Shown in pieces: positions 14,421 to 64,000 of a stretch of DNA of 64,000 nt. The notes beneath the pieces are model-generated. The model was not told where the DNA came from. It searched no databases and saw nothing but the letters and a program-made list of their open reading frames with translations. Every line of letters starts with the position of its first letter. Positions within the stretch are counted from its first letter, which is position 1. The translations under genes were made by a program, and so were the position numbers. Origin of the DNA: Chara braunii (Eukaryota > Plantae > Charophyceae); NCBI GenBank assembly GCA_003427395.1, contig BFEA01000013.1, positions 4,168,168 through 4,232,167 of the forward strand. The letters run 5' to 3'.

Positions 14421-15201
14421 ACAGGCAAAAAGCCTGATATGCCCTGGCTGCAGGCCAGGGCAGATAGAGGCTCGCTGCACCAATTCTCCATTTGCCTGTC
14501 CAAAAGTATACCCCTTGCAACGACCATTGACCCGAATACGATCATGCCCTTTGTCCATTAAAAAAAATATAAGATCCAATCTACAGCCTTTTTAATAGAA
14601 TCGTGAGGTAGTTTGGGAAACGTATCCTTTATATCATGTGACGCTCCTTTGATTGCAGGTATTTGAAATTTCGGAACAGAAGAGTTGATCTTTGAGACAT
14701 TGTCCTTATTCTAAGACGTAGTCCTCATAGGAAAGTGGGACAAAAGGGTAAGTTTCCGAAGAAGAGGAGTGTTAATTGATTTACCAATGATAATTGAATG
14801 ATTCTATCCGAAACATTTGCCGGTCCGGAAAAGGAGGCGCAGATGGGCCGCCATCGTTGTGTATCCTGTGTTTGGGAATGCAATAGAATTTGCCGAGTGC
14901 CATTGCTTTCGATTGACACAAGAAAGCTCATTGCAAAACATGATGGTATCATTATGATTTTGATTATTATATTATATTTTGCTAATTTCTGTTTTTAACA
15001 GGGAACCATTGATGTCGCTGGAAGGTCTGAAAAGCGGCCGGAGACAATCCGTGCGCACTTTGGCTTTGACAAATAATGACCCATCTGGTCCATCTAAAGT
15101 GGAGGAAATTTCAGGTCAGCTAGTGTGGCAAGCGAGCCACAAAGGTTCCCTTGACAAAGAGTATAATACTCTATTACTTCAAAAAATTCTCCTCAGTTTG
15201 G

Positions 15202-22036: not shown

Positions 22037-22963
22037 CAGAGCACCCATTTCATTGCCTCAGTTTCTGAAAACATTTTTTATCGAAAGACAACCGGTCTTG
22101 GGGGAGGTGGAATCCAGTGACACGAATGAAGAAGTCTGGGAACATTTTGCTGGTACCTGTCTGCCAGAGAAGTCTTGATGCCTCCACAGTTTCTTGGTGT
22201 TTGGGCGGGCTAAAAGACAGTGCTCCAGGTTTCCTATTTTGCCTCCCTCACAGATGGTACAAAGCTCCTTTAAACCTACCACTACCTCTGAGCCTCTTTT
22301 TGCCAAGACAGATCCCCACTGCGCACCAAGGCTCGCCGAAGCACCAGCGCAGTATTTCTTTCTGTTTTTGGTGGCTGGCGTCGCCAGCCATTGGGGTCTG
22401 GTAGCCCCAAGCCTCCGAAGAACCCGGAATCATACTTTTCCAATTCTCGACGTCGTAGTGGTGGTTTAATCTGCTTATTTGCTCTCTGCTTCTTCGCTCT
22501 CTGCTTCTCCACTCGTTCAGCCATTCATTGACCAGCGGCGCTAGGTAGAGGATCAACCACTGCATGCTCCTTCGTCCTGGCTCCATTTCCATTCTGGGGA
22601 GCATCAGTCCGGTTCCTATTCCACCGGCAAGTCAGAATAACAGGATACATCATAAGTATTCACCCACGCTTCCTTCCGTCTGGCCGAAGGACCCCTGACC
22701 AGCATTGATTGCTCCAACATCGTGGAGGATTGACTGTCAGCTTGCCCTGCTTCATCCTTTCCTCACAGGTCTACTGCAAAAACCTGTCGTATAAAACATG
22801 ACTAGCGAGAAAGGTCCTAGAAGCTGCCAAATCTGCCAATTTTGTCTATACTGTAAGACCCCCTTATGAGCTACATGAGAACTCTGCTATTCTGAACCCT
22901 GTTTGCCCTAATTCTGTCCAAACCATAAACCCTAAGCCCTCAACTTTTTTTTTTCTTTTTTTT

Positions 22964-23050
22964 ATGTGGTCCGATGGACCACGGATCATATATTAAACTG
23001 ATCAGAACAGATACTACACTTGATCTTAGCCAAAAGGCCAAAAAAGGTAT
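22964..23050 (-). ncRNA. U2: U2 snRNA 5' fragment (nt 1-87), polyadenylated pseudogene
   Basis: - strand reads ATACCTTTTTTGGCCTTTTGGCTAAGATCAAGTGTAGTATCTGTTCTGATCAGTTTAATATATGATCCGTGGTCCATCGGACCACAT then an A-tract. It has the plant-type 5' end, branch-recognition GTAGTA and stems IIa/IIb, but no Sm site. Confidence 0.95.
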
Positions 23051-23381: not shown

Positions 23382-26300
23382 TTATGGCATCCTAAGTTCC
23401 TGTGTCAACAGATGATCATCCGCAGTGTCCTCCTGTCGCTCATCTTTAAACCAATTGAAAATAAGTCTCTCTCCTTCTACGGTCGCTACTTTGCCTTGGG
23501 GTAGTACCCTTTTCTGGAATTTGGTTAGAATATCCCTTGCCTTTTCTGAGTTAAAAGCCACTTGCTTCTTTGTCCTAATCCATAACGCCCTAATCTCTAT
23601 CTCCAACAGGCTATAGAGAGTTGCCTTGGCTTCCACATCAGAATCTTGCCCACCACCTGCTGACATCTTCGTTTCCATATTGTCCATAAAGTGTATTGTC
23701 TCAGTAGACGAATGATATATTTATGGCCATCCCACCATTCCTTGGGCACCTCGCTTCCTATCAATATTAATTTCCTGTTTCGCGGGAAGGGGAAGTCCGT
23801 AGTATGTGTCCACAATGAACGAGCTATGGACCAGAGATAATCTGCTTCAGGGCAATGGAGCAAACAATGGATCAGAGTTTCCTGAACGCTCGTCATACAC
23901 ATAACACAGTCTTGATCTGACTCATTCCTATTGAGCCTGCTTCGCTTATCGAACAACCAGACATTGAATGGGAGTGCTACATGACAGATATGCCCCTGAC
24001 CTTGGCCAATCTAATATTGTGCAAAGATGACCATGGTAACCTTTCTACTTGTTCCCTTGGTATATCCAGTTTCTTTTCCCATCTTATCAACAAAGTCTGA
24101 TCCTGATGGCAAGATCTCACCCTCAAACGGTAGCCCAATTTAGTGGTGTAATGAAGTATATTGATTCTCCTGCTTACTTTGGATGAACTTCCCCTGATGT
24201 TCCATGCCCACTCTGCTGGATCAATTTTGAGATCCCAAATAGATGTCAGTGGCTCAAATATCGTAAAATCGTCATTCTCAACCACTCTTACCTTTCTTGA
24301 AATGGTTTTCTTAATGACTATCAGAACCCTGGAATCCTTATCCAGCATACTGACCGTGACTCCTGGAGATAGTATTGTGAACATATCTGCTTCCAACCAC
24401 TGTTTAGAAGGTCCAACCTCCTGTCTTATGCGAAAGGCTACCTCTGGCTCATTAGTAGGGACCATTGTTGCCCAATCCCCCCATCCCCATTTGTCTAGTT
24501 CCTTCAATGTCCTTATCCACTCATCCGGAATGGAGAGAAGAATGTCATTCAGATTTTCAATTAGTCTATGACAGCCCTTCATTTCCTCCCTCAGTTCCCT
24601 ACCTATTTTCCATCGCCCCCTGCTGACTGACCAGAGATGTTTGACCTGCCGTACTCCATGTTCTAACCACTTCCCCCACTTGGCGTCCTTCGTTGTTAGT
24701 GTTCTAGGTCTTCCTTGAGAGTCTTCCTTGAGAGTCTTTTAACCATGGATTACAAAATAACGGTTGTCTAAGCACTTCATCCTTCGTCTTAGGTTGTCTA
24801 ACTCTTGCTGGGAAGACCTCTGCCCAGATTTTGAGCAATTGAGCCCAGTATGTACCTCTAGTTGCATCATCCTCTGCTAATTGTTCCCTCGTTCTATCCT
24901 TCTTGGTCCAACCCTTGCAGAATAGCCAAAATGTACCCTTCATATTGGAAGGCGTTTTATATCTGGCCATCTGTCGTATGTGGTCAAGTACCAATGGAAC
25001 CCACCGTAAGTGAGGTTGTGTTAACAACTTAATGATCCACTTAGTTTGTAGTGATCTTATCTGCTGTCCCGGATCCAAGACTCCCATCCCTCCCCTGTCT
25101 TTTGGTTGAATAACTTGGTTCCATGATACCTTTGATATAAAGTTGGCTCTTGTTGGATTTGCTGTCCACAAATATGCTGCCGCCACCTTCCTCAGTTTTT
25201 GTAGTGCATATGCAGGTGGAGACCATATTGTTCCAACATACCATAACATAAAGAAAATTGAAGCATTTATGACTAGTACCCTCCCGAACAGTGAGATATT
25301 TATTTCCGACCACGCCGCCATCTTCAATAGCATTTTTGTCATATGATCAGGTGCCATGGAGTGATGGGGACCCGTGTCCGCCATTCTGATCCCCAAGTAT
25401 CTCATTGTTTGATCTGGCGGTAACCAAGTCATCCTCCCATAATTCTGTGGCTGATACTGTGGCTGTTGGTCATCATATGATAGCCACCACCCCAACGTCT
25501 TCGGCCAATTGATTCTCATCTCCAATGCCAATTGGAATGCCGCCATTGCTCTCATAAGGGCTTGAAATGAAGAGTCTGTTGCTCTGATTAGTACCGTCAG
25601 ATCATCCGCAAATAATATTGTTGTTGGCAAATGTGTGACACGTCCCTGCTGATCCGTTTCAATAATCAGATGGTCTATTAAAGGGTCTTTTCTAAGGAAC
25701 GAAGCAATAGCTTCCATTATAAACAAGAAAATGGGAGCCGCTAAAGGGTCTCCTTGCCTGACCGACCTCGTCATTTTATACCTATCTGACAGGTGGCCAT
25801 TAACTTGGACCTTTCCGTGTGCATCATTATACAATACACGAATCCATTTTTGAAAGTTAGAGCCCACTCCCATCTTCTCCATACATTGCTGTAAAAAGTT
25901 CCAGTTGACTTGATCGTACGCTTTTTCAAAGTCGAAGAAGTTGATCGCTGCGTTTATCCTCCTATTCGTAATGTACCTTACTGATTCTGATAAAGTCATG
26001 ACATTATCTAATATAAATCTTCCCGGAATGAAACCTGTTTGATCTAGGTGGAAACATCCTTCTGTAACCTTCCTGAGGTGGTTAGCCAGTGCCTTAGCCA
26101 CTATCTTGTGAGTGAGGGTCAACAGTGTAATTGGTCTGTAATTTTTGATATCCCTAAGGTCTCCCTTCTTATATTGCAGAATAACGATGCCAGTCGCCAA
26201 CTCTACCCCCAAGCCCTCTCTCTGCCAGGCTTGATGGAGAAAAGATTCGTATTCTTCTCCTAAGATAGGTCAATACTCCACCCAAAATTCCTTAGTCAAT

Positions 26301-27800
26301 CCATCCTTACCCAACGTCTTGTTAGGAGGCATAGAGTGAAGGGCTTCCCTTAATTCCTCCTCAGAAAAAGGAGCGTCCAATTTTTTCAGTTGCTCCCTCT
26401 TGACCGTACGATCTAAGTATGATAGAAACTTATTCCTGACTTCCTTCAGCTGATGAGACGTATGTTCACCTTCCCTTGAAGTGTATAATGCACTGTAGAA
26501 GTCATATGCCACCGAAAGCATCCCTTTCGGATTCGAAACCAGTCCTTGCGGGCCTTCCAACTGTTCTATTAATTTGTTTCTTCCTCTTGCTTTAATCTTT
26601 TGAAAGAAGTACTTTGTCATTCTTTCTCCCTCCTCCCATTCTTTCACTCTCGCCCTCATCTGTAGACCCCTAGCCCTCCATCTCTCAGAGTCACCCAATT
26701 CGTTTCTTGCTACCTCTATTATTCTCTCATACAATTCCGATTCTGGGTTATTAATTAAATTTCTTTCTACTATACGTAATGCCCTGTTCAGTTTCGATTT
26801 CCCTTGCCATCCGTCTTGCTGCCAATTGTCTAGATACTACTGCCGTTGTTGTTGACAAGGCTTCTAAAAGGTCCACAAATGATTTTGTATCCGGATTGTG
26901 TGTTAGGCACACTTGCAGAATAGCTTCTCTCAACTCCTTAGTTCTTAATAACGAATTATTAACCTTATAGAAACTCCTTCCTATGTGAACATGTTTGTCC
27001 ATAATGAAGTTAAGAAAAATGGGTTTATGATCTAGGCACGAACAGTATGGTAAGTCTCCTACTCCCACCGAGTGTATTGTTCCCACTATGTCTTGTGATA
27101 TGCGGAAGTAGTCTATCCTTGATGCTGAGATATGTTGACTACGATTCCTTTCGTAATATGTGAATTGTTTTATTTGCGGCTGTTGAAGTCTAAATGGGTC
27201 TACTAGATCTCCAGATGTCATAAGGCTGTGAATAGGTAAGGCTTCGTCCCACATCAATCCTTCCCCTACCCCTGACCTTCCACCTAGCAGCCTGTCCCTA
27301 CTAGGATCTAAAGTAGCATTCCAATGCGCTGCCAATATGAGATGTCTTGACGGGTCTATGTTGTTTTGTAACGTATCTATCATCTCCGACCGCTGATGTC
27401 CTCCGTTAGGACAATAGACTGTAATGAGCGTGAACTGCTCATTCTGATAGGTAAAATTGAGCTTTATACATCTGCCTTCGTCTTCATCTAGAATGACATC
27501 TTGTACTATTATTCTATCTGCAGCCTGCGATTTTTTATTGAGTAAAACTACTACTCCCGCTGAATGTGACCTGCCCGCTACCGCCCAAAAGCTTGTCTTA
27601 ACCCACCTTAGTTGTCTTATTATGCGATGTCGAATGTTCTGATGCTCTAATGAATCCGTAAGGTGAGTTTCCTGCAGACATAAGAATTCTGGAGGTGTCT
27701 TCCCAATCCAGTTTGAGTACCTCATTACGTTGTCCCACTTGTCTTTGTTTTCCAAAATTTATACCATCCCATTGATGTTCCAAGACATGATCCTAAGGTT
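23382..27800 (-). pseudogene. LINE ORF2: APE endonuclease, reverse transcriptase, C-terminal CCHC zinc finger
   Basis: MSWNING, CLQETH, SRIDY, LDHKPI; NYRPITLL, DFEKAYD, VRQGDPL, LFADDL, YLGI; CVMC...ETLIHCLLHC. Confidence 0.95.
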
Positions 27801-27840
27801 CAGCTCCCTACGTTTTGAAGTATCCCTCGTCTTTCTACGT

Positions 27841-30800
27841 TTATACACTCCCTCTCTCAATCCCGCCTCCATGATCTATGATGTCCTTTTTGACCCTTTT
27901 CAAATTTCCTACTCGGGATCCTACCCGGGTCCAGTCTACTATTGTAGCCAGGATCTCCATCTTTCCATCGATGTAGTCCGGCTGCCATGCAAACACATCA
28001 CTTTGGTGACTATGGCCGCTCCCCTTGCCGCCCATTCTGCCGCCTCTGAACCCCCCAACAGTCCATACGGAACCGTCTCCACCACTTGCCATGGCATCCA
28101 AATCAATCCCTCAGCCAATACTGCCTTTTCCTGCAGCTTGATCATGACTGACCTGTAGTCCACTATGTGTGTTGTACCCGCTGCATCTTCCCATTCTTCC
28201 TTATCATGCTTGAGATCCCCAATGGCGTGCGCCTACGAGGGTAGATCTTTTGTGATACGTTCCTTCAATACATCCTGCTCGCAGTGACTACCCTTCGTTG
28301 TGATTAATGCCAGAGACCTGTGAATGGTCACCTCCCAATCCGCATTGCCGTTGTTCCATCTGTAGGGCAAAATGATTATCCTACCTGGGTCTTGTCTTGC
28401 ATACAATTTGGCCGCTGCATTGATGTCTGCATGTGGAGTATAGGCTATTTTCTGAAGGTTTATAGTGTCTGCCTCCAATTCCCTGTTCTGATCCCTGAGA
28501 ACCTCGACTTGTGCCTCCAAAATCGCTGCCTGCCTCTTTTCCTCTTCCATCTGTTCATCCACAGCTAACCCCTGAGAGGAATCTGACAAATCCTGGTTAC
28601 TGCTTCCCAATTGCTCCACTTCTTGCTGTTTGGCCGTTTGTTTCTGTTCAGATCTCTTCAGCCCTTGTGGCTGGTAAGACTTCGGCCAAATGAACTGCTT
28701 GGCGTACCCCGCATTGTTCACTGTGATGTCATTCTTGTCCAACCTAGCCTTCCATCCATATTGCATAGCGTAAAACTTATTAACCTTCATTTCATTCTTC
28801 AGTCTTTCAAATTTGTTTGTTGTTGTGATGTCATCCCCCGCTGCTGTGGCTTGTTTCAAATTGTGCAAATGCTTGTGGTGTGCCAGACGAATCTCACATT
28901 CAATGTGTCTCTCCCACTTCAGCTTGTGAACGTGCTTAATCCACTGTGCTAGTGTTTTCGGATCCTCCTCTCATTCCTCCTCCCTCCTGTTGCTGTCCCC
29001 ATCCAAATCTGTATCCGAATCCTGTGATGTTTTCCTTGCTCCTTCATCCTCCTCCCCCCCCGAGTCCTCTGCTGTGTTTTCCATATCACCAAAAGGTGAT
29101 CTGTTTGTAGAGCTAGTTCGGTCTGCTGAGGGCCCATGTTCTGTTTGGTGATTCGTTGAAGCTGATGCTGGCGTGTTATCTAGAGAGGCTGTAATATCCA
29201 TTTCTTCCCCTTGAGATACTTGCTCACCCTTGCCTTCTTCCTCCATATCTTCCTTGTACTCCTGTTCCCCTTGTGTAGAAGCTTCATTTGATCCCTTCCT
29301 TGAATGTCCCCGCTTAGGTCCTTGGTATGAGCTATCCCCTTTCACTGATTCCTTGTCACTGATTTTCCTCTTAAGAGAAGCTGATGATTCTCCCCCCTTC
29401 CCTTCCCCTTCAGTGCCCCTGTCTTCATCATCTTCTTTCGTTTCTTCCTCTGTCGTTCCCTTACTCTTTGAACCATTCTTACTTCCCTGCACACCATAGT
29501 CCCCCCTTTCCTCCAAACTTCCCTCCACTTCTGACTTTTGTGCCTCTTCTCTTGCTCTTTTATTTTCCAAGAAGGCCAGTTCCGCTGCTTGGCCCACCTT
29601 GTGTAGCTCTGCCATGGTCTAGTCTCTGCCTGTCATCTAGCATTGAGGCGTCATCTATCTTAGGCTTATTGATAAAACCCACGTCTCTGTCCACCATCCT
29701 CTTTGCACCCATTTGCCTCCATCTACTGTCATATGCAGGATAAATGTCCGGTTTCACCGATGGTGCTCTGCGAAGAACCCACACCCATCGTGGAATGTCC
29801 AGGTTGTCATCGAAGATCCAGCCCCTGTATTGCGCTGAATTGATGAACCATACTCTTGGTTTGTTGTCTGATTCAACAAGCATTGATTGTTTTAATTGTG
29901 GCAGATTACCTTCTGACCCCGACCCAGACTGTGGACAGTGCATCCCCAAGTGTCCCCTGCCTCTGCAAGGCAAAAAGGATTAGTTTTTGTGGATATAAAG
30001 ACAGTAATTCTTTTTGTCCGTCTGCGAAAAATCCAGACCTCTGGGAACTTTGGTGGAGCTCCCGACTTAACCTCCAAACATACCACCCTTGAATCATAAT
30101 TCGGAGCTAAAAAGTCTGGATGAGCAGGAAGTCACTCTATGATTGGATTATTTGGGAATTCCTCCGTCAGACGTTGCTGTACAAAGCTATGCATACCCTC
30201 TGACAGGTTGTCAAATAGTACCCAAAAATGATCTCTAAGCATAGACTGCCCGCATCTCGATGCTTCCGCCGGTGGTGGCTGCGAAGGCTTCCATGCTTGA
30301 ATAGTTACCACAGGCCCATGACATTTGAAAGAACCGAGGGATAATAAAAATTGCGCGTACGCTGAATCAACGCAAACTATCATTACCGTAAATCTTCCCC
30401 TTTTGTGATATGACACCTCTGGTTCCATGCTTGGGATGTGCTCAAGTCCTCTTAGTCTCTCCATCACCCACTTTCTTTTTTCATTGAGAGAAAGTTCCGT
30501 GTTTTTCCTGAGAAATTAAATAACACAGCATGACGTGCATAGAGGTCGTGAAGTGACTGCAGATCCTGTTTTGGGTACTCCCATACGTCCACTTCCTCCT
30601 TTTTTCCATCTTGTCCCTTGACCACCTCTTTTGTGACTTTGACCGGCGCCGTGATTTTTGTTTTTTCCATCAGGAAATCAAGAGCTTTTTGTCCCAAAGC
30701 TCTAGATTGGCTGACCCTGACGCCTGTGCTTGACATGCTATGTGATGCTGATTGTAGCTCTACTCGCCTTCCCCCCTCCCCTTGTGCCTTCAGTTGTTCG

Positions 30801-42422: not shown

Positions 42423-42482
42423 ACAAACTGTTTCATCGGAGTTTCACCGACTCATCAGGAGGCTAAACCCTTAACAGTCTGC
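42423..42482 (-). ncRNA. Type III hammerhead ribozyme, decayed copy
   Basis: - strand: GCAGACTGT T AAGG GTTTAG CCTC CTGATGA GTCGG TGAAACT CCGAT GAA ACAGTTTGT. One stem I mismatch. Confidence 0.8.
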
Positions 42483-46703: not shown

Positions 46704-46763
46704 GCAGACTGTTGAGGGTTCAGCCTCCTGATGAGTCGGTGAAACTCTGACGAAACAGTTTGT
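46704..46763 (+). ncRNA. Type III hammerhead ribozyme
   Basis: Stem III GCAGACTGT/ACAGTTTGT, cleavage triplet GTT (after 46713), stem I GAGG/CCTC, CTGATGA core, stem II GTCGG/CTGAC, GAAA. Confidence 0.88.
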
Positions 46764-55796: not shown

Positions 55797-58425
55797 TCAA
55801 TCTTGTCCCGGACATCCAATCTTTCCATTCCGTCCCATCCAGTTCCTCAATCTGGTAGGCCCCGAATTCGCCATATCACACAATTTTGTAAGGCCCCAAC
55901 CACCTTTTATCGAGCTTCCTCGACCACTGCTTCTCCAGAGAAGAATCATATAGCAGCACAATATCTCCAACTGCCAATGGCTCATTTCGCACTCGTGCCA
56001 TCTGATCCCATTGCATCTTATCCTCCATGCGTCTCCTTTCCACCTGATTGGAGGCCTCCCGTATCCTTTCCTCAGCAACACCCACTTGTCGTGCCCGAAT
56101 ATCGAGCAATTCCTCGAACGACAGGTTGGTCGCCAAGTCTTGGCGCCTCCAGGTCTTCAAGAATCTTTCTATGGGAAAGGTGGCATGTCTTCCATACCAC
56201 AAAGTGGCAGGCACGCACTTGGTAGTCCTCTTTACCGTGACATTTTCAACGAAGAGGGCTGCTCGTAGGAACTTCGGCCACTAACCGGGGCTACCTTCCG
56301 TCCATTTAGCTAGAAGATTCGTGATAGTACTATGCCCCCTTTCCACTGGTGCGTTTGCTTGGGGATGTGCAGCGGTAGTGTAATTTGCCACTACTCCATA
56401 CCCTGCAAGTAACGTTAGTACCTCTCTGCAAGTAAACTCCGATCCTCGATCCATCACGAACTCCTTGATGAAAGGATACCGTAGGTAATAATCCTCGATG
56501 CAGCTTGCCAAACTGGGTCGGTCTTCGTGCGAATGGCCCGACCGTCCACAAACCTAGTAAGGTTGTCTTGCACATCGAAGATATAGTTATATCCATTCTC
56601 CACAACTGGCATGAAGAGCAGATTCAGATGTACGACCGCGCCTACCTCTCTCTCTAACCTTGGGTGTAAGGGTTCTCCTGGCCTTTGTGCCGATCGCTCT
56701 TGGCAAGGTACACAGGTTTGGCAGTAATTGATGACCATGTCCAACATTCCACTCCAGTAGTATAACTCGCTTATCTTAGCGTATGTGGCATTTACTCCCT
56801 TGTGCCCCCCTGCTATACTGTCGTGCAATACTGCGATAATGTCGATCTGTCGGTTCCTCCCGCATACAATTCGCTTGGGATTCCCGACTTGTCACTTTAT
56901 GAACAGATGGCCATCCCTCACCACATAGAGATGCCTCATCTTCTGGGCCCTAGCACTCGCATCCCTGTTCCTCATCTCACAGGATAGGAGTAGACCCAAC
57001 TCAAGGTAGGTCCCATCATACTCCTCTGCCCGAAACACCTCTTTAATCTCCCCTTCCTCGAACTCATCATCCTGACTCTCAGACGCAAAATCCTCGCCTT
57101 CAGTCGGATTCAATGAGCCTCTTCGGTCGAAATCACTTTGCAAAAGCGTATTCGTAAGGAGGTACATCCCTCCCATCAGCTGCTCATGCTCCTCGACATG
57201 AGTAGGGCCTTCCTCTATCGTCCTTACTCCCTCCGCCAAACTATGTGTACCTGCCAACGCCAATTTCATCATCCAGTGAACGTCCTTGCCTCCCCATGGG
57301 TCCTCCTCCTGAAACGGCTTGAGAACTAATTCTGCCTTTTGCTCATACCCTCTAGGCACTATCCACATGGGGTGGCTGACACAGTTGGGCACTCGCAAGG
57401 ACCACTTGTTTATATGGAGCCAAGCGTCCTCTTCCTGGTCCAAGAACCCATCAACTGGTGGAGTATCTTCAGTCGACTCCTGAATCCAACTTGTCCCAGT
57501 TAATGCGGCTCAAACCATCTGCCTTGTTCTTGTTTCCCGGAATCCTCTCCAATTCGAAGTTAAACATCCAAATGTACGTCAACCATCGTGCGACGGTTGG
57601 GTCAGATGGAGTATAATTCTTCAGGGAACAGGCGAACGCAGTGGGATCCACCCTCAATATGAACCTCCTGCCGAAAACATAGTTCCGGAAGATCCTCAGG
57701 CAATGGAGCACCGCAAGCGTCTCCTTTCTGAACTGAGAGTAGTTCCTCTCAGTCGCATTAAGAGTCCGACTTTCAAATCTAAGCGGTCTCTCCTTTCCTT
57801 CAGCATCCGCCTGAATTAGGACTCCTCCCAAAGCAGTCGGCCCAGTGTCTGTCTCGATGATGAAAGGCTTTTCCTCAGTCATTTCATAATTCGGCGCCCC
57901 CAATACTAACCCTCCTTCCTTGAATTCCCCCTTCATCCGTGTTACCGCCTCTTCCTGATCTTCACCCCAAAACCACTCCTGATCCTGACACACCAGTTTC
58001 CTTAAATGCTCGGTCTTGGCGGCAAAGTCCTTTACAAAGCTCCTCCAAAATCCACAGGTGCCAAGAAAGTTTCTCACATCCGTTATGGAGTGAAAAGGTA
58101 CTGGCCATTCTACGATCTTGTTCGTCTTTTTCACATCCGGTCTCCGACCATTCTCATTGCAGACAAAACGCAGGATGGTAGCTTCCTTCATGCAGTGCTT
58201 GGATTTCGGACCGCTCGCAGTAAGGTTGTATTCCTCCAACAGGCTCAAGATCTGATCAAGGTCTTGAATATGCCTCCAGACGAAACGCCTTACTCCGGGC
58301 AACACTTCGTCCTCCTCTCTCTCCTTCGGGCCTTTGACCGCCAAGTCATCGATACAAGGTTGAGTGATGTGTGGACTGGCCGTCTGCATGGCCCTGATCA
58401 GATGTCCCTGCACCATTGCCAATGC
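55797..58425 (-). pseudogene. Gypsy pol: RT C-terminal half, RNase H, integrase with GPY/F
   Basis: PCIDDLAVKGP, FLGTCGFWRSF, RPLRFESR, ADGLSR, HDS..GHKG..CQTCVPCQ, MDRGSEF, PVERGH, WLGPYKI. Confidence 0.92.
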
Positions 58426-59317
58426 AATGGTTGTCGCCCCAATTCCATGCATTTTTTGCCAGTCTTCGACGTGTGGGCCAATGGAAAACGTACCCTAACT
58501 CCTGTGTTTTTTTACAGTCAGAAGAATGCATTAAAAATCGTGAAACTCGAGGGCCTGTAGATTAAGTCGTGATCTTTCCAAGAAAAATAGTTAAAAAAAT
58601 AAAATAAAAAAAATTCGACTGTCAAGTAGAGAGATGTTTAACGGGGCACCAAATATTCGCCGTTTTCACCAGCAATTTCGGTGCGAAATTCATCCAAAAA
58701 TTCAAAAACAAACGATACGGGCCAATAGTGCAAACATCAAAAAAAGAAACAGGCCAAAGAAACTGGAAAAGAAAAACATAAAATCACTTTAGAACTCTAA
58801 CGCAAAATTACTATCCAAGTTAAAATGAAGCGCCCAACTAACTTAACAAAATGCCAACTTTTTCATTATCGATCCAAACATCTCAATATTGGACACATGA
58901 TGTACCCTGAAGCACATATTTTCCATTTCTGCCATTCGGTCGGTTTTCCAGTCTGCAAGGTTAGGGTTTGGACACACAGACACATCCTGCTGTGCCAGCT
59001 GTCTGACACTGTATACACTTAAAAAAAAAACGGTTCCACACAGGGACCCAATCTGCCTCAACCGATATCTCATCAGGCAGTTGGGTCTCTCAAATCTGTG
59101 GGTGGGTTCAAACCCCAACTACAATAGTCAGCAGCGAACTTTAAAACATTAATATAAATGTGTGTGTGGTGGGGGATGGGCAGATGCGTAACTGTCTGTG
59201 TGTGTCAAGTGCGTGCCGCACACAAGAAAAACTTATCTTCGTCCTTTTGGTGGGCAGGTGTGTAACTCTCCTAATATAAATGTGTGTAAGGGGGGGGGGG
59301 GGGCAGGGGGTCTACAC

Positions 59318-59355
59318 CTGTCTCTTATACACATCTAGATGTGTATAAGAGACAG
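59318..59355. other. Nextera mate-pair junction adapter (two inverted Tn5 mosaic ends); assembly contamination
   Basis: Exact CTGTCTCTTATACACATCT+AGATGTGTATAAGAGACAG. Confidence 0.98.
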
Positions 59356-59473
59356 ATATATGAGTCGGTGAAACTCTGACGAAACGGTTTGTCACAGCCC
59401 CTCGTTTGTTGTCCTCTTCTCTCTCTCTGCCTACGGTTTACCGGGCAGTTCTGTTTGTGACGATATATATATN

Positions 59474-60630: not shown

Positions 60631-61799
60631 AACAGAGTATCCTATCCAAGTTTGTCAAAGTTTGGCTGGTGGGAAGGAAAATCGCAGAGTTGACAGACTT
60701 CAACATACGGTGGAAAGAATGGCATAACTCGGAAACGAGGTGGAGAAGTTCAGGACTCCACCCTTCGGACGGTCGGCAGGGTCAACAGACCACATAAGGA
60801 TGATAAAAAATCCTCAAAGCTACCCAAGAGCAACCTTTCTGTCGTTTCTCGGTTTTCCTTGTTTTTTCAAAGCTTTAGGTGACAGATTTTCAGAAAGGAA
60901 ATCTGAGAGGGAATTCAGGGAATGGCACGCTGACAGTCAATCCTCCTATCAGGAGTAATCAATGCTGGTCAGGGTTCCTTCGGCCATACGGAAGGAAACG
61001 TGAGGGTGTACCATGTTGTATTCAATTTTGACTTGCCGGGGGAATAGGAACCGGATTGACTCTCCCCAGAAAAAAAAAGGACCTTCCTGAGGAAAAAAAA
61101 AAAAAAAAAAAAGGAGCCACGGCAGAGAAAATGCACCACGGTTCTAAGGCTGCCCTAAGGTCGCCATAACTATGGTCTTGTATGGACAGTAGGGCACACA
61201 CCCTTTGGCCTGTATTTGCTATGAGACACAGACTTATATGTCGATTTTAGGTCTTTTTTTCATGTCCTGAGTTTTGTAAGCTAATTATAACTTGTTCAGT
61301 AGGTCGGTAGACTAAGCTGGTCAGCCCAGTGCTGTCTAAACACAAATTCAATATTCTATTCCACGAGAAGAAGAAGAAGAACCAGGTGGTCCGACTTTCC
61401 CTGTTTTGGTGCCTTTACGGTGATGGCAGGTGTTGGAAGGTGCTTGGCTCCTTGTGGACTGCATGTATTTCAACCTCCATTATTTGGTGTGACCATGCTA
61501 GGGTCATCTCATGGCTTTGACCCTAATGGGATTACAACAGGTAGGAGGAATTCTCTCCCTGTCTTCACACAAACCCAAAGATTGGATATTGTTATTCTGT
61601 TCTTTATCAAGAGGTATCGTTTGTTGCAGAGGAACAAAGGAATACAGTGGGGACAACGAACACTTGAAGATCTGTTGCTGCATCACACATAAGAAAACAG
61701 ACAAAAGAGAGCAGAATCAGCAGATGTTTTTGAAAACAATAAAGATGTGCATAGAAAAATAAGGAAACTAACAAAAAAAACACAAACATGTCTCTCTTT

Positions 61800-62259
<460 letters not shown>

Positions 62260-62934
62260 ATCAGAGATTTTTTTTTTTAAAGGGGGGAGGTAAGTTGACC
62301 TTGGACACCGGACCCCTCTGGAAGGATTGGGACTGTGATGGAAAAGTCTAGAAGGCCAGCCTTTCTTCTCAGGAGGAGCCTAACCAGGGGACCCGAAAAA
62401 ATGCATACCTGTAGACCCCTCTGGCCGGAATAGACCAATAACAGAAAACAGGCTAGGTCAGCGGATTTGGAAGGGAGAGAGTGTTGGGCCTGACCAAGAA
62501 GCCGCGAGAACCGGAATCGACGTGTCTACCGACCAAAAATAGAAATAAATACGTGAGTGTTAGTATAACCCGGCCTCTTAGTTCCATTCTACCCTCGGGA
62601 GGAAAAGCATGAGAATCGCTGACTTGGCGCGACTCTGCTTTTCCCCTGAAGGAAGGATTTCAATCTTCCAAACACCAACAGTTATCGGGACAGTTGTTCT
62701 TCAACGTTAGTGGCTACTCAGAGACCTGTCGACCTGGATGGACCAATGTCACTGGAGGAGATGCTGTCCGTTCAGGATACGGTCTTCGGAGAAAATGAGG
62801 GCAGTGTGCCCGCGCAGGTGAAAGACTCGTTACCCATGGTATGTCGTATGTATTGAACTGGTTATATGAGACTGGCAAACTACGTTTCTTTAAAAAAAAG
62901 CATGTGATGAAAGATGTTTATGCTTATTGATCTA

Positions 62935-62995
62935 TCCCTCTGATGAGTTAACCTGTGGCTGGTTAATGAAAAACGCGTTTTAGGGAGGTTGCCAC
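62935..62995 (+). ncRNA. Type I hammerhead ribozyme with loop II pseudoknot
   Basis: TCCCT CTGATGA GTTAACC TGTGGCT GGTTAAT GAA AAACGCGTTT T AGGGA GGTT GCCAC. Confidence 0.82.
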
Positions 62996-63949
62996 GATCC
63001 CCAGCTAAGCATCTTGAGTTTTTTCCTGTCTACCCGGTCTTGAGGTGAAATGACAGGATATACGCTTGCTTGAAACATATAGCTTAAATTAGCCTTTTTT
63101 GTTGCTGCTCACAAATTCTTCGATTAATCGCGTAATTGTCATTTCGTAACTGGATTTTTTGTGGCTTTTATGAATGTATACTGTTCTTCGGACGTGCAAG
63201 GCAATTTTTCGCCGAAATACGTAGGGAGCATGTTTTGAAGATACTCAAGCCTATGCGCTGCAAGTGAATCAGGTCCACGCGGAGGGGAACAGCGTGGTAG
63301 CTGCGCGGAAACTGATGATGCTGACATAGGAAGCTGTTGGTCCTGGGATAGGAGGGCGTTTCTGAATACGGATGGGGATGTTTTTTTTAGCACATATGAA
63401 TACGATAGTTGGTTGCAGAGTAATGTAAAAGATAGAGAAGGAAACATTGGTCTAGATACCACCATAGCATGACATGTCTCATTTGCATGAGTGAGGGTAT
63501 TGGTAAAAATGATCTTTGAAGGTCATTCTGGGTGAGATAGGCAGACTAGCGAATGGAGAGTTATTGTAGTCAATGGCCGGAACGTGATACGAGAATCCTT
63601 GGGAAGATCGACTGTGAGAAGGGTGTACGGTAAAGTACCTGGGTCGTTACATTTGTTATTCTCGTGTGTAGTCCAGTCATGTGAACGGTTGAATTCAGAT
63701 CTACCGTCTACGTCTATTTTAATCTGCATACCTTGTTGCCATTGGATCTGCTCTGAATAACTTGTTGGCTTTCAAATTTGGCTGAAGGTGATTTCTGTCA
63801 GTTTGCTGGTCGACGAAATCGGAGAAATGAGTGATAATTAGTTCTTACATACTGGATTGTTTGATGCGGAAATCGCAACCGTCTCCCTGGGAGTCCACGA
63901 TTCGGAGTGCCTTATGGCACTGAAGGGCAGCGTTCGCTCTTATTTATAC

Positions 63950-64000
<51 letters not shown>

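Follow-up and report, generated by a model that had tools for sequence, protein, structure and literature searches.

A type I hammerhead motif in a dispersed Chara braunii repeat lies within a spliced sense-strand intron

Close to the end of a 64,000-nt stretch of Chara braunii DNA (contig BFEA01000013.1; hereafter the window), a short plus-strand sequence resembles a hammerhead ribozyme. Is this a genuine ribozyme motif, what kind of element carries it, and what becomes of it in RNA? We consider it probable that the site is a type I hammerhead and that it forms the block best conserved among the copies of a Chara repeat, which is dispersed, flanked by (CA)n tracts, and likely the 3′ end of a Penelope-like element (PLE). 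The single copy found here sits in a sense-strand intron that is spliced out, and slow cleavage, or none, is what we predict for it. The motif is of a known kind, as hammerheads have been reported from Chara PLEs (PMC8557442), and it defines no new class of RNA or element. What the locus adds is an apparently uncatalogued Chara family, a covarying pseudoknot, and a splice into the repeat.

Layout, chance expectation, and predicted folding of the motif

The motif spans positions 62935 to 62986 on the plus strand. Read 5′ to 3′, it consists of the first stem I strand, TCCCT (62935–62939); the core CTGATGA (CUGAUGA in RNA, 62940–62946); a 7-bp stem II formed by GTTAACC (62947–62953) and GGTTAAT (62961–62967) around loop II, TGTGGCT (62954–62960); GAA (62968–62970); a 10-nt palindromic stem III, AAACGCGTTT (62971–62980); U17 (T62981); and the second stem I strand, AGGGA (62982–62986), which completes 5 bp. 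Stem I is followed by GGTT and then GCCAC (62991–62995). The first-pass annotation had called a type I hammerhead here, and each element that it named is present letter for letter. All conserved core positions are canonical (CUGANGA, GAA, the A15.1–U16.1 pair, a NUH triplet, and type I order), while the 10.1–11.1 pair in this copy is G–U (T at 62967) rather than the canonical G10.1–C11.1. Cutting is predicted after 62981, where the triplet is UUU, which is allowed but ranks lowest among NUH triplets (PMC8879150). An alternative register, in which UUA is the triplet and an additional U precedes C3, was dropped, as the palindrome is broken by it.

A strict type I descriptor (stem II of at least 7 bp, stem I of at least 5 bp, and stem III of at least 2 bp) matched the window solely at 62935 and gave 0 matches in 300 dinucleotide shuffles. 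Because these thresholds were taken from the motif itself, the fairer figure is that of a relaxed descriptor (4/4 pairs), which recovered the same sole site in the window and gave 3 matches in 300 dinucleotide shuffles; the motif thus stands beyond chance. An Rfam search (4227 families), the check proposed in the first-pass annotation, returned no hammerhead match at the motif, either for the whole window at E ≤ 1 or for 62800–63100 at E ≤ 10. Weak snoRNA matches (E 2–2.7) were dismissed as chance. The motif pattern was also absent from the metagenome and viral contigs searched. On the descriptor and on conservation among other copies, rather than on a library match, we judge from sequence that the site is a genuine hammerhead-ribozyme motif of type I. 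We regard it as extremely improbable that the likeness to a hammerhead arose by chance, with no catalytic history. Such a reading could draw on the missing Rfam match and on a fold no better than that of shuffled sequences, but it has against it the shuffle counts, the way in which other copies selectively conserve the motif and change it without loss of pairing (see below), and a layout like that of the published Chara motifs (PMC8557442).

The active fold is not the minimum-energy one for 62929–62995, and the latter does not surpass the folds of shuffles (z −0.34). Pair probabilities are 0.73–0.86 for stem I and 0.26–0.97 for stem II. For stem III, the hairpin form has probability 0 and would cost +4.2 kcal/mol; the 10 bp of this stem form solely between two copies, and the two-strand homoduplex of the palindrome is worth −11.1 kcal/mol. 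With the pseudoknot uncounted, the active fold of a monomer lies at −7.4 kcal/mol compared with −14.7 kcal/mol for the best fold, a gap of 7.3 kcal/mol, and the two-copy active fold lies at −34.3 kcal/mol compared with −29.4 kcal/mol for two best monomers. The best two-copy fold, at −39.1 kcal/mol, is not the fully active one. The model energetics support the proposition, already put forward with the annotation, that the palindromic stem III would favor a dimer, in line with the dimer model put forward for palindromic helix III (PMC4209133).

Loop II nucleotides GUGGC (62955–62959) are complementary to the GCCAC tail (62991–62995), as had been remarked when the motif was annotated, and we predict that the two form a pseudoknot (62955–62995, plus strand). 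The bare duplex has an energy of −9.8 kcal/mol, a possible U–G wobble (62954/62996) would extend it, and a 5-bp complement is expected by chance in ∼2.4% of 12-nt tails. In three of three canonical Chara PLE hammerheads, 5–6 nt of loop II exactly complement the tail after stem I (PMC8557442 File S2); the Chlamys-3 hammerhead was excluded from this comparison as noncanonical (PMC8557442). The letters of the pairing partners differ in each Chara family while the pairing is retained, and this agreement with three published motifs supports the predicted pseudoknot. Counting the present one, four Chara hammerhead families retain the pairing with letters that differ; the families are related and do not amount to four independent draws. 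The pseudoknot goes unmentioned in the main text and File S2 of PMC8557442 and in the titles and abstract openings of the further literature searched.

The dispersed repeat and its affinity to Penelope-like elements

The motif is contained in a copy of a dispersed repeat of ∼1.7 kb (62257–63952, plus strand), the 5′ boundary of which is uncertain, related contigs beginning at ∼62346. The copy is flanked by (CA)35 at its 5′ end (62186–62255) and by at least (CA)24 at its 3′ end (63953–64000), the latter reaching the end of the window. The window contains five CA tracts, so that (CA)n flanking carries little weight as evidence. In run X4, two contigs have a loose end at 63943 and continue into CA repeats, marking the 3′ end of other copies. 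Contigs aligning to 62290–63945 number 56, 53, and 51 in three DNA runs, of which 33, 32, and 27, respectively, are less than 90% alike; the runs belong to one study with two samples, possibly the source of the window, and are not independent. Homologues with a conserved core, on which the earlier reading depended, are present among these contigs.

The summed depth of contigs is highest at the hammerhead, with values of 217/182/392 across 62962–63017 compared with 25/20/47 across 62850–62905, a measure that is not copy number, and contig loose ends bracket the motif at 62936 and 63005–63015. Co-linear joints connect 62775–62788 to 62936, 63017 to 63885–63897, 63092 to 63472, 63280 to 63482, and 63557 to 63710. 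The conserved blocks are, in order, 62735–62790, the hammerhead, ∼63200–63280, 63470–63560, and 63885–63945. The block at 62735–62790 (plus strand), which is marked by contig depth and loose ends, is also covered by three raw RNA reads, less than 90% alike, in run X18. This block has no significant fold (z −0.74) and no protein match, and the other conserved blocks of the repeat likewise lack a significant fold.

Among the best-supported 40 of 286 substitutions in other copies, two fall within 62935–62996, both in stem II and both with pairing retained. The first, 62967 T>C, occurs in 17/15/19 contigs with about nine tenths of the depth and yields the canonical G10.1–C11.1 pair; the second, 62953 C>T, occurs in 17/15/10 contigs and yields a U–G wobble. 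A 2-nt deletion at 62974, found in one contig each in runs X1 and X3, leaves a shorter palindrome. Position 62981 is absent from the best 40 of the 286 differences, which suggests that U17 is common within the repeat family, and U17 is also frequent in published PLE hammerheads (PMC8557442). The earlier suggestion that UUU reflects decay of this copy is thus doubtful, and the T at 62967 is its clearer private change. C>T and G>A changes predominate in the comparison of copies (51 and 53 places in X1), the pattern of ordinary decay of methylated repeats, and the conservation described here is measured among paralogues, not orthologues.

From its hammerhead layout, host, position, and (CA)n target, the repeat is likely a 5′-truncated or nonautonomous 3′ end of a Penelope-like retroelement. 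The first-pass annotation had offered a PLE or non-LTR retrozyme relic. The PLE half of this proposal is favored by the Penelope-like layout, but no PLE protein was found in Pfam, homologue, or Atlas searches. Searches for RT and GIY-YIG remnants, which the annotation had also recommended, returned 0 Pfam families in six of six read-through frames of the repeat. The two plus-strand frames most protein-like in look were taken for homologue searches, and both the word-based searches (two frames) and HMMER against 1.84 billion representatives (one frame) were empty; an Atlas search gave a best value of 0.87 with low recognition. The lack of RT in a 1.7-kb copy is expected if the copy is 5′-truncated. 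Furthermore, the GIY-YIG endonuclease is absent in PLE-X, and in Chlamys it is N-terminal and hence the first part lost upon truncation.

The non-LTR retrozyme half of the proposal fared less well, as the tandem form of 150- to 450-bp units is absent from the window: 62257–63952 contains 0 direct repeats, and self-BLAST detected no second copy of the motif or the repeat. A partial tandem or pLTR partner was likewise not found within the window, which ends 48 nt past the repeat. A plant LTR retrozyme, which carries type III hammerheads in its LTRs, was ruled out, as the motif is of type I and, as first asserted in the annotation and borne out by self-BLAST, unrelated in sequence to the type III motifs of the window.

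The repeat might instead be a stand-alone, nonautonomous retrozyme-like element, or a mobile element of unknown kind, that borrowed a hammerhead, rather than a truncated protein-coding PLE. This would account for 1.7 kb without a coding remnant and for several short conserved blocks separated by variable spacers, and the published Chara PLE consensus sequences are unmatched in an exact-match search (PMC8557442). We nevertheless consider it unlikely. Tandem units are absent here, as opposed to the 150- to 450-bp tandems of non-LTR retrozymes (PMC7229834); PLE-X1_cBra, inspected by eye, has considerably more than 1 kb of apparently noncoding sequence before its hammerhead, such that a 1.7-kb 3′ piece need hold no RT; and a 2026 preprint (10.64898/2026.07.22.740005) derives such retrozymes from PLE pLTRs. 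Returning to a PLE 3′ end as the preferred identity, none of six window motifs matched the published Chara consensus families, and the palindrome gave 0 matches (exact matching in the PMC8557442 supplement, in which line breaks may hide matches). The repeat therefore appears, on present sequence comparisons, to represent an uncatalogued Chara family.

The remainder of the window is repeat-rich eukaryotic DNA. A Ty3 RT at 57469–58491 has homologues of which 31 of 31 are named Chara braunii, the best at 84% identity, as befits a host that is Chara or closely related to it, and a broken non-LTR element (L1-like by eye) with endonuclease and RT frames occupies 23977–29618 on the minus strand. The 5′ part of a U2 snRNA (22942–23050, minus strand; Rfam 90 bits) lacks its 3′ half and is likely a truncated copy. 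Two type III hammerheads lie in opposite orientations at 42425–42480 (minus) and 46706–46761 (plus), with Rfam Hammerhead_3 E values of 6.6e-4 and 6.2e-6, below gathering. A third type III piece (59360–59457, plus) has neither stem I nor the beginning of the core, and is directly preceded by a perfect 38-nt palindrome (59318–59355), which we take to be two copies of the Tn5/Nextera mosaic end. The palindrome is likely an adapter retained in the assembly, and the third type III piece may be an assembly artefact.

Splicing across the hammerhead

A used 3′ splice site (AG, 63199–63200, plus strand) lies inside the repeat, in multicopy sequence, with the acceptor AG at 63200 located 219 nt downstream of the predicted cut. 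Contigs identical to the window (0 differences) cover 63199–63296 and 63526–63748 in run X5 and 63199–63322 and 63354–63544 in run X6. In the loose end of the X5 contig, 30 letters match 61509–61538, giving a join of 61540 to 63201; in that of the X6 contig, 30 letters match 15083–15112, giving a join of 15114 to 63201 across ∼48 kb. The exon joined in X5 (61502–61540, plus strand; donor GT 61541) is 39 nt long if its acceptor is the AG at 61500–61501, and the far upstream exon joined in X6 (donor GT 15115) would span 15002–15114 on the same strand, the start being putative in both cases. Each join is carried by one low-depth contig (3.3 in X5, 2.5 in X6), from two studies whose runs are only guessed to be RNA. 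Because these two contigs connect upstream donors (15114 and 61540) to the acceptor at 63200, the hammerhead sits in a sense-strand intron that is spliced, a location missed by the first-pass annotation.

The transcribed exon of repeat sequence (plus strand) runs from 63201 to at least 63748. The frame continuing from the upstream exons reaches a stop after 11 codons, and thus this exon of the repeat is likely a terminal one. Five raw reads in run X18 all have their first mate on the minus strand, which in a usual stranded library denotes plus-strand RNA; from the splice sites and mate direction, the RNA over the repeat is plus strand. In oligo-dT raw RNA, sampled at 6–13% of three runs, 0, 5, and 0 reads fell on the repeat and none on the motif, with no peaks of read starts or ends, a result that is neutral on cleavage. 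For the 34-aa frame of the upstream exon, the sole matches were Atlas clusters without names and a lead to fn3 at 18%.

Several further features of the transcribed strand deserve mention. The ∼48-kb intron is packed with retroelements, and 61502–61540 resembles a 39-nt cassette exon. The segment 14661–14748 has good splice sites and, by eye, stops in every frame. Positions 62288–62295, at the 5′ margin of the repeat, form a perfect donor, AGGTAAGT, a motif that occurs five times on the same strand of the window. Paired with the acceptor at 63200, the donor at 62288 would give a 910-nt element-internal intron containing the hammerhead, a join not found among those listed. In PLE-X1_cBra (PMC8557442 File S6), a strong pyrimidine tract and AG are seen by eye ∼185 nt past the site at which its hammerhead would cut, comparable to the distance between cut and acceptor in the present repeat.

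In the mechanism that we propose for the family, stems I and II of the RNA would form and be docked by the pseudoknot between loop II and the 3′ tail, and two copies would then pair to complete the weak palindromic stem III. Cutting after U62981 would trim tandem element transcripts and so might serve transposition. Hammerhead cleavage leaves a 2′,3′-cyclic phosphate and a 5′-OH. At this locus, cleavage is predicted to be slow or nil, since the lone copy has no cis partner, carries the weakest NUH triplet, UUU, and has G–U at 10.1–11.1. Slow ribozyme activity is compatible with, though not proven by, a spliced product that spans the motif, because cut introns may still undergo splicing. In an Anolis element, hammerhead cleavage needed protein and was dispensable for insertion in vitro (PMC11167929).

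Might the hammerhead instead be active here, and kept or co-opted to tune splicing, such that a cut made in the nascent intron, 219 nt short of the acceptor, would compete with use of the repeat-derived exon? The sense orientation, the intronic position near a used acceptor, the intact core and predicted pseudoknot, and the precedent of the CPEB3 intronic ribozyme (PMC10919898) are all in line with this. Yet this copy deviates from the family majority at 10.1–11.1, its triplet is UUU and its stem III has no partner, the differences among copies are mostly the C>T and G>A of ordinary methylated-repeat decay, and the conservation is among paralogues rather than orthologues, such that we hold splice tuning to be quite improbable. 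A broader idea, which we put forward as a speculation with rather poor odds, is that the 3′ module of this Chara PLE family acts as an exon trap gated by its ribozyme. The hammerhead, with its pseudoknot, would lie ∼220 nt before the element's own acceptor; upon insertion into a host intron, the host transcript would be cut or else spliced into the element, and a copy whose ribozyme had weakened would give a host gene a new terminal exon. The locus provides a naturally occurring example of a splice that spans a hammerhead and uses an acceptor of the same repeat, one that permits a simple minigene test.

Comparison with known hammerheads and elements

The closest relatives are the Chara PLE hammerheads of Craig et al. 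2021 (PMC8557442), in which canonical 3′ hammerheads are described for Chlamys-2, Chlamys-5, and PLE-X1 and a deviant one for Chlamys-3. The three canonical ones and the motif here share a CCCT(C) stem I, a CG-centered palindromic stem III, a stem II of 5–7 bp with a loop of 6–8 nt, sense orientation near the 3′ end, and complementarity between loop II and the tail (PMC8557442). PLE-X1_cBra in addition shares the (CA)n preference and U16.2, and its hammerhead lies ∼900 nt from the 3′ end compared with ∼1020 nt to the 3′ (CA)n tract here (PMC8557442). In contrast to the published Chara motifs, the present one has a different stem II and flanks, U17 rather than C17, a longer palindrome, and no RT seen (PMC8557442).

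Perreault et al. 2011 (PMC3088659) likewise described tertiary base pairing that connects the side of stem I with that of stem II. Such pseudoknots were predicted in ∼40% of hammerheads, across all three types, and the pseudoknot was required for fast cleavage in the construct that they tested (PMC3088659). The passages of PMC3088659 consulted do not describe such pseudoknots for algal PLEs, and the Chara pseudoknot is a predicted one.

The PLE hammerheads of Cervera and de la Peña 2014 (PMC4209133) resemble the motif here in their short helix I, long helix II, and palindromic helix III, and those with a short palindromic helix III act as dimers (PMC4209133). Most of them occur singly and dispersed, are regarded as truncated PLEs, and have low activity (PMC4209133), to which we liken the present copy, predicted to be slow if it cleaves at all. 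The motif here differs from them in having no unpaired base preceding stem II and in its predicted pseudoknot between loop II and the tail. Non-LTR retrozymes (PMC7229834; 10.64898/2026.07.22.740005) also combine a type I hammerhead with a protein-less repeat, but they are tandem units of 150–450 bp in animals, whereas the repeat here is a single unit of ∼1.7 kb. Finally, the HDV-like ribozyme of CPEB3 (PMC10919898) resembles the motif here in being a ribozyme motif in an intron before an exon; it belongs to another ribozyme class and has a conserved orthologous locus and demonstrated activity, in contrast to the repeat copy described here, for which cleavage is predicted to be slow or nil.
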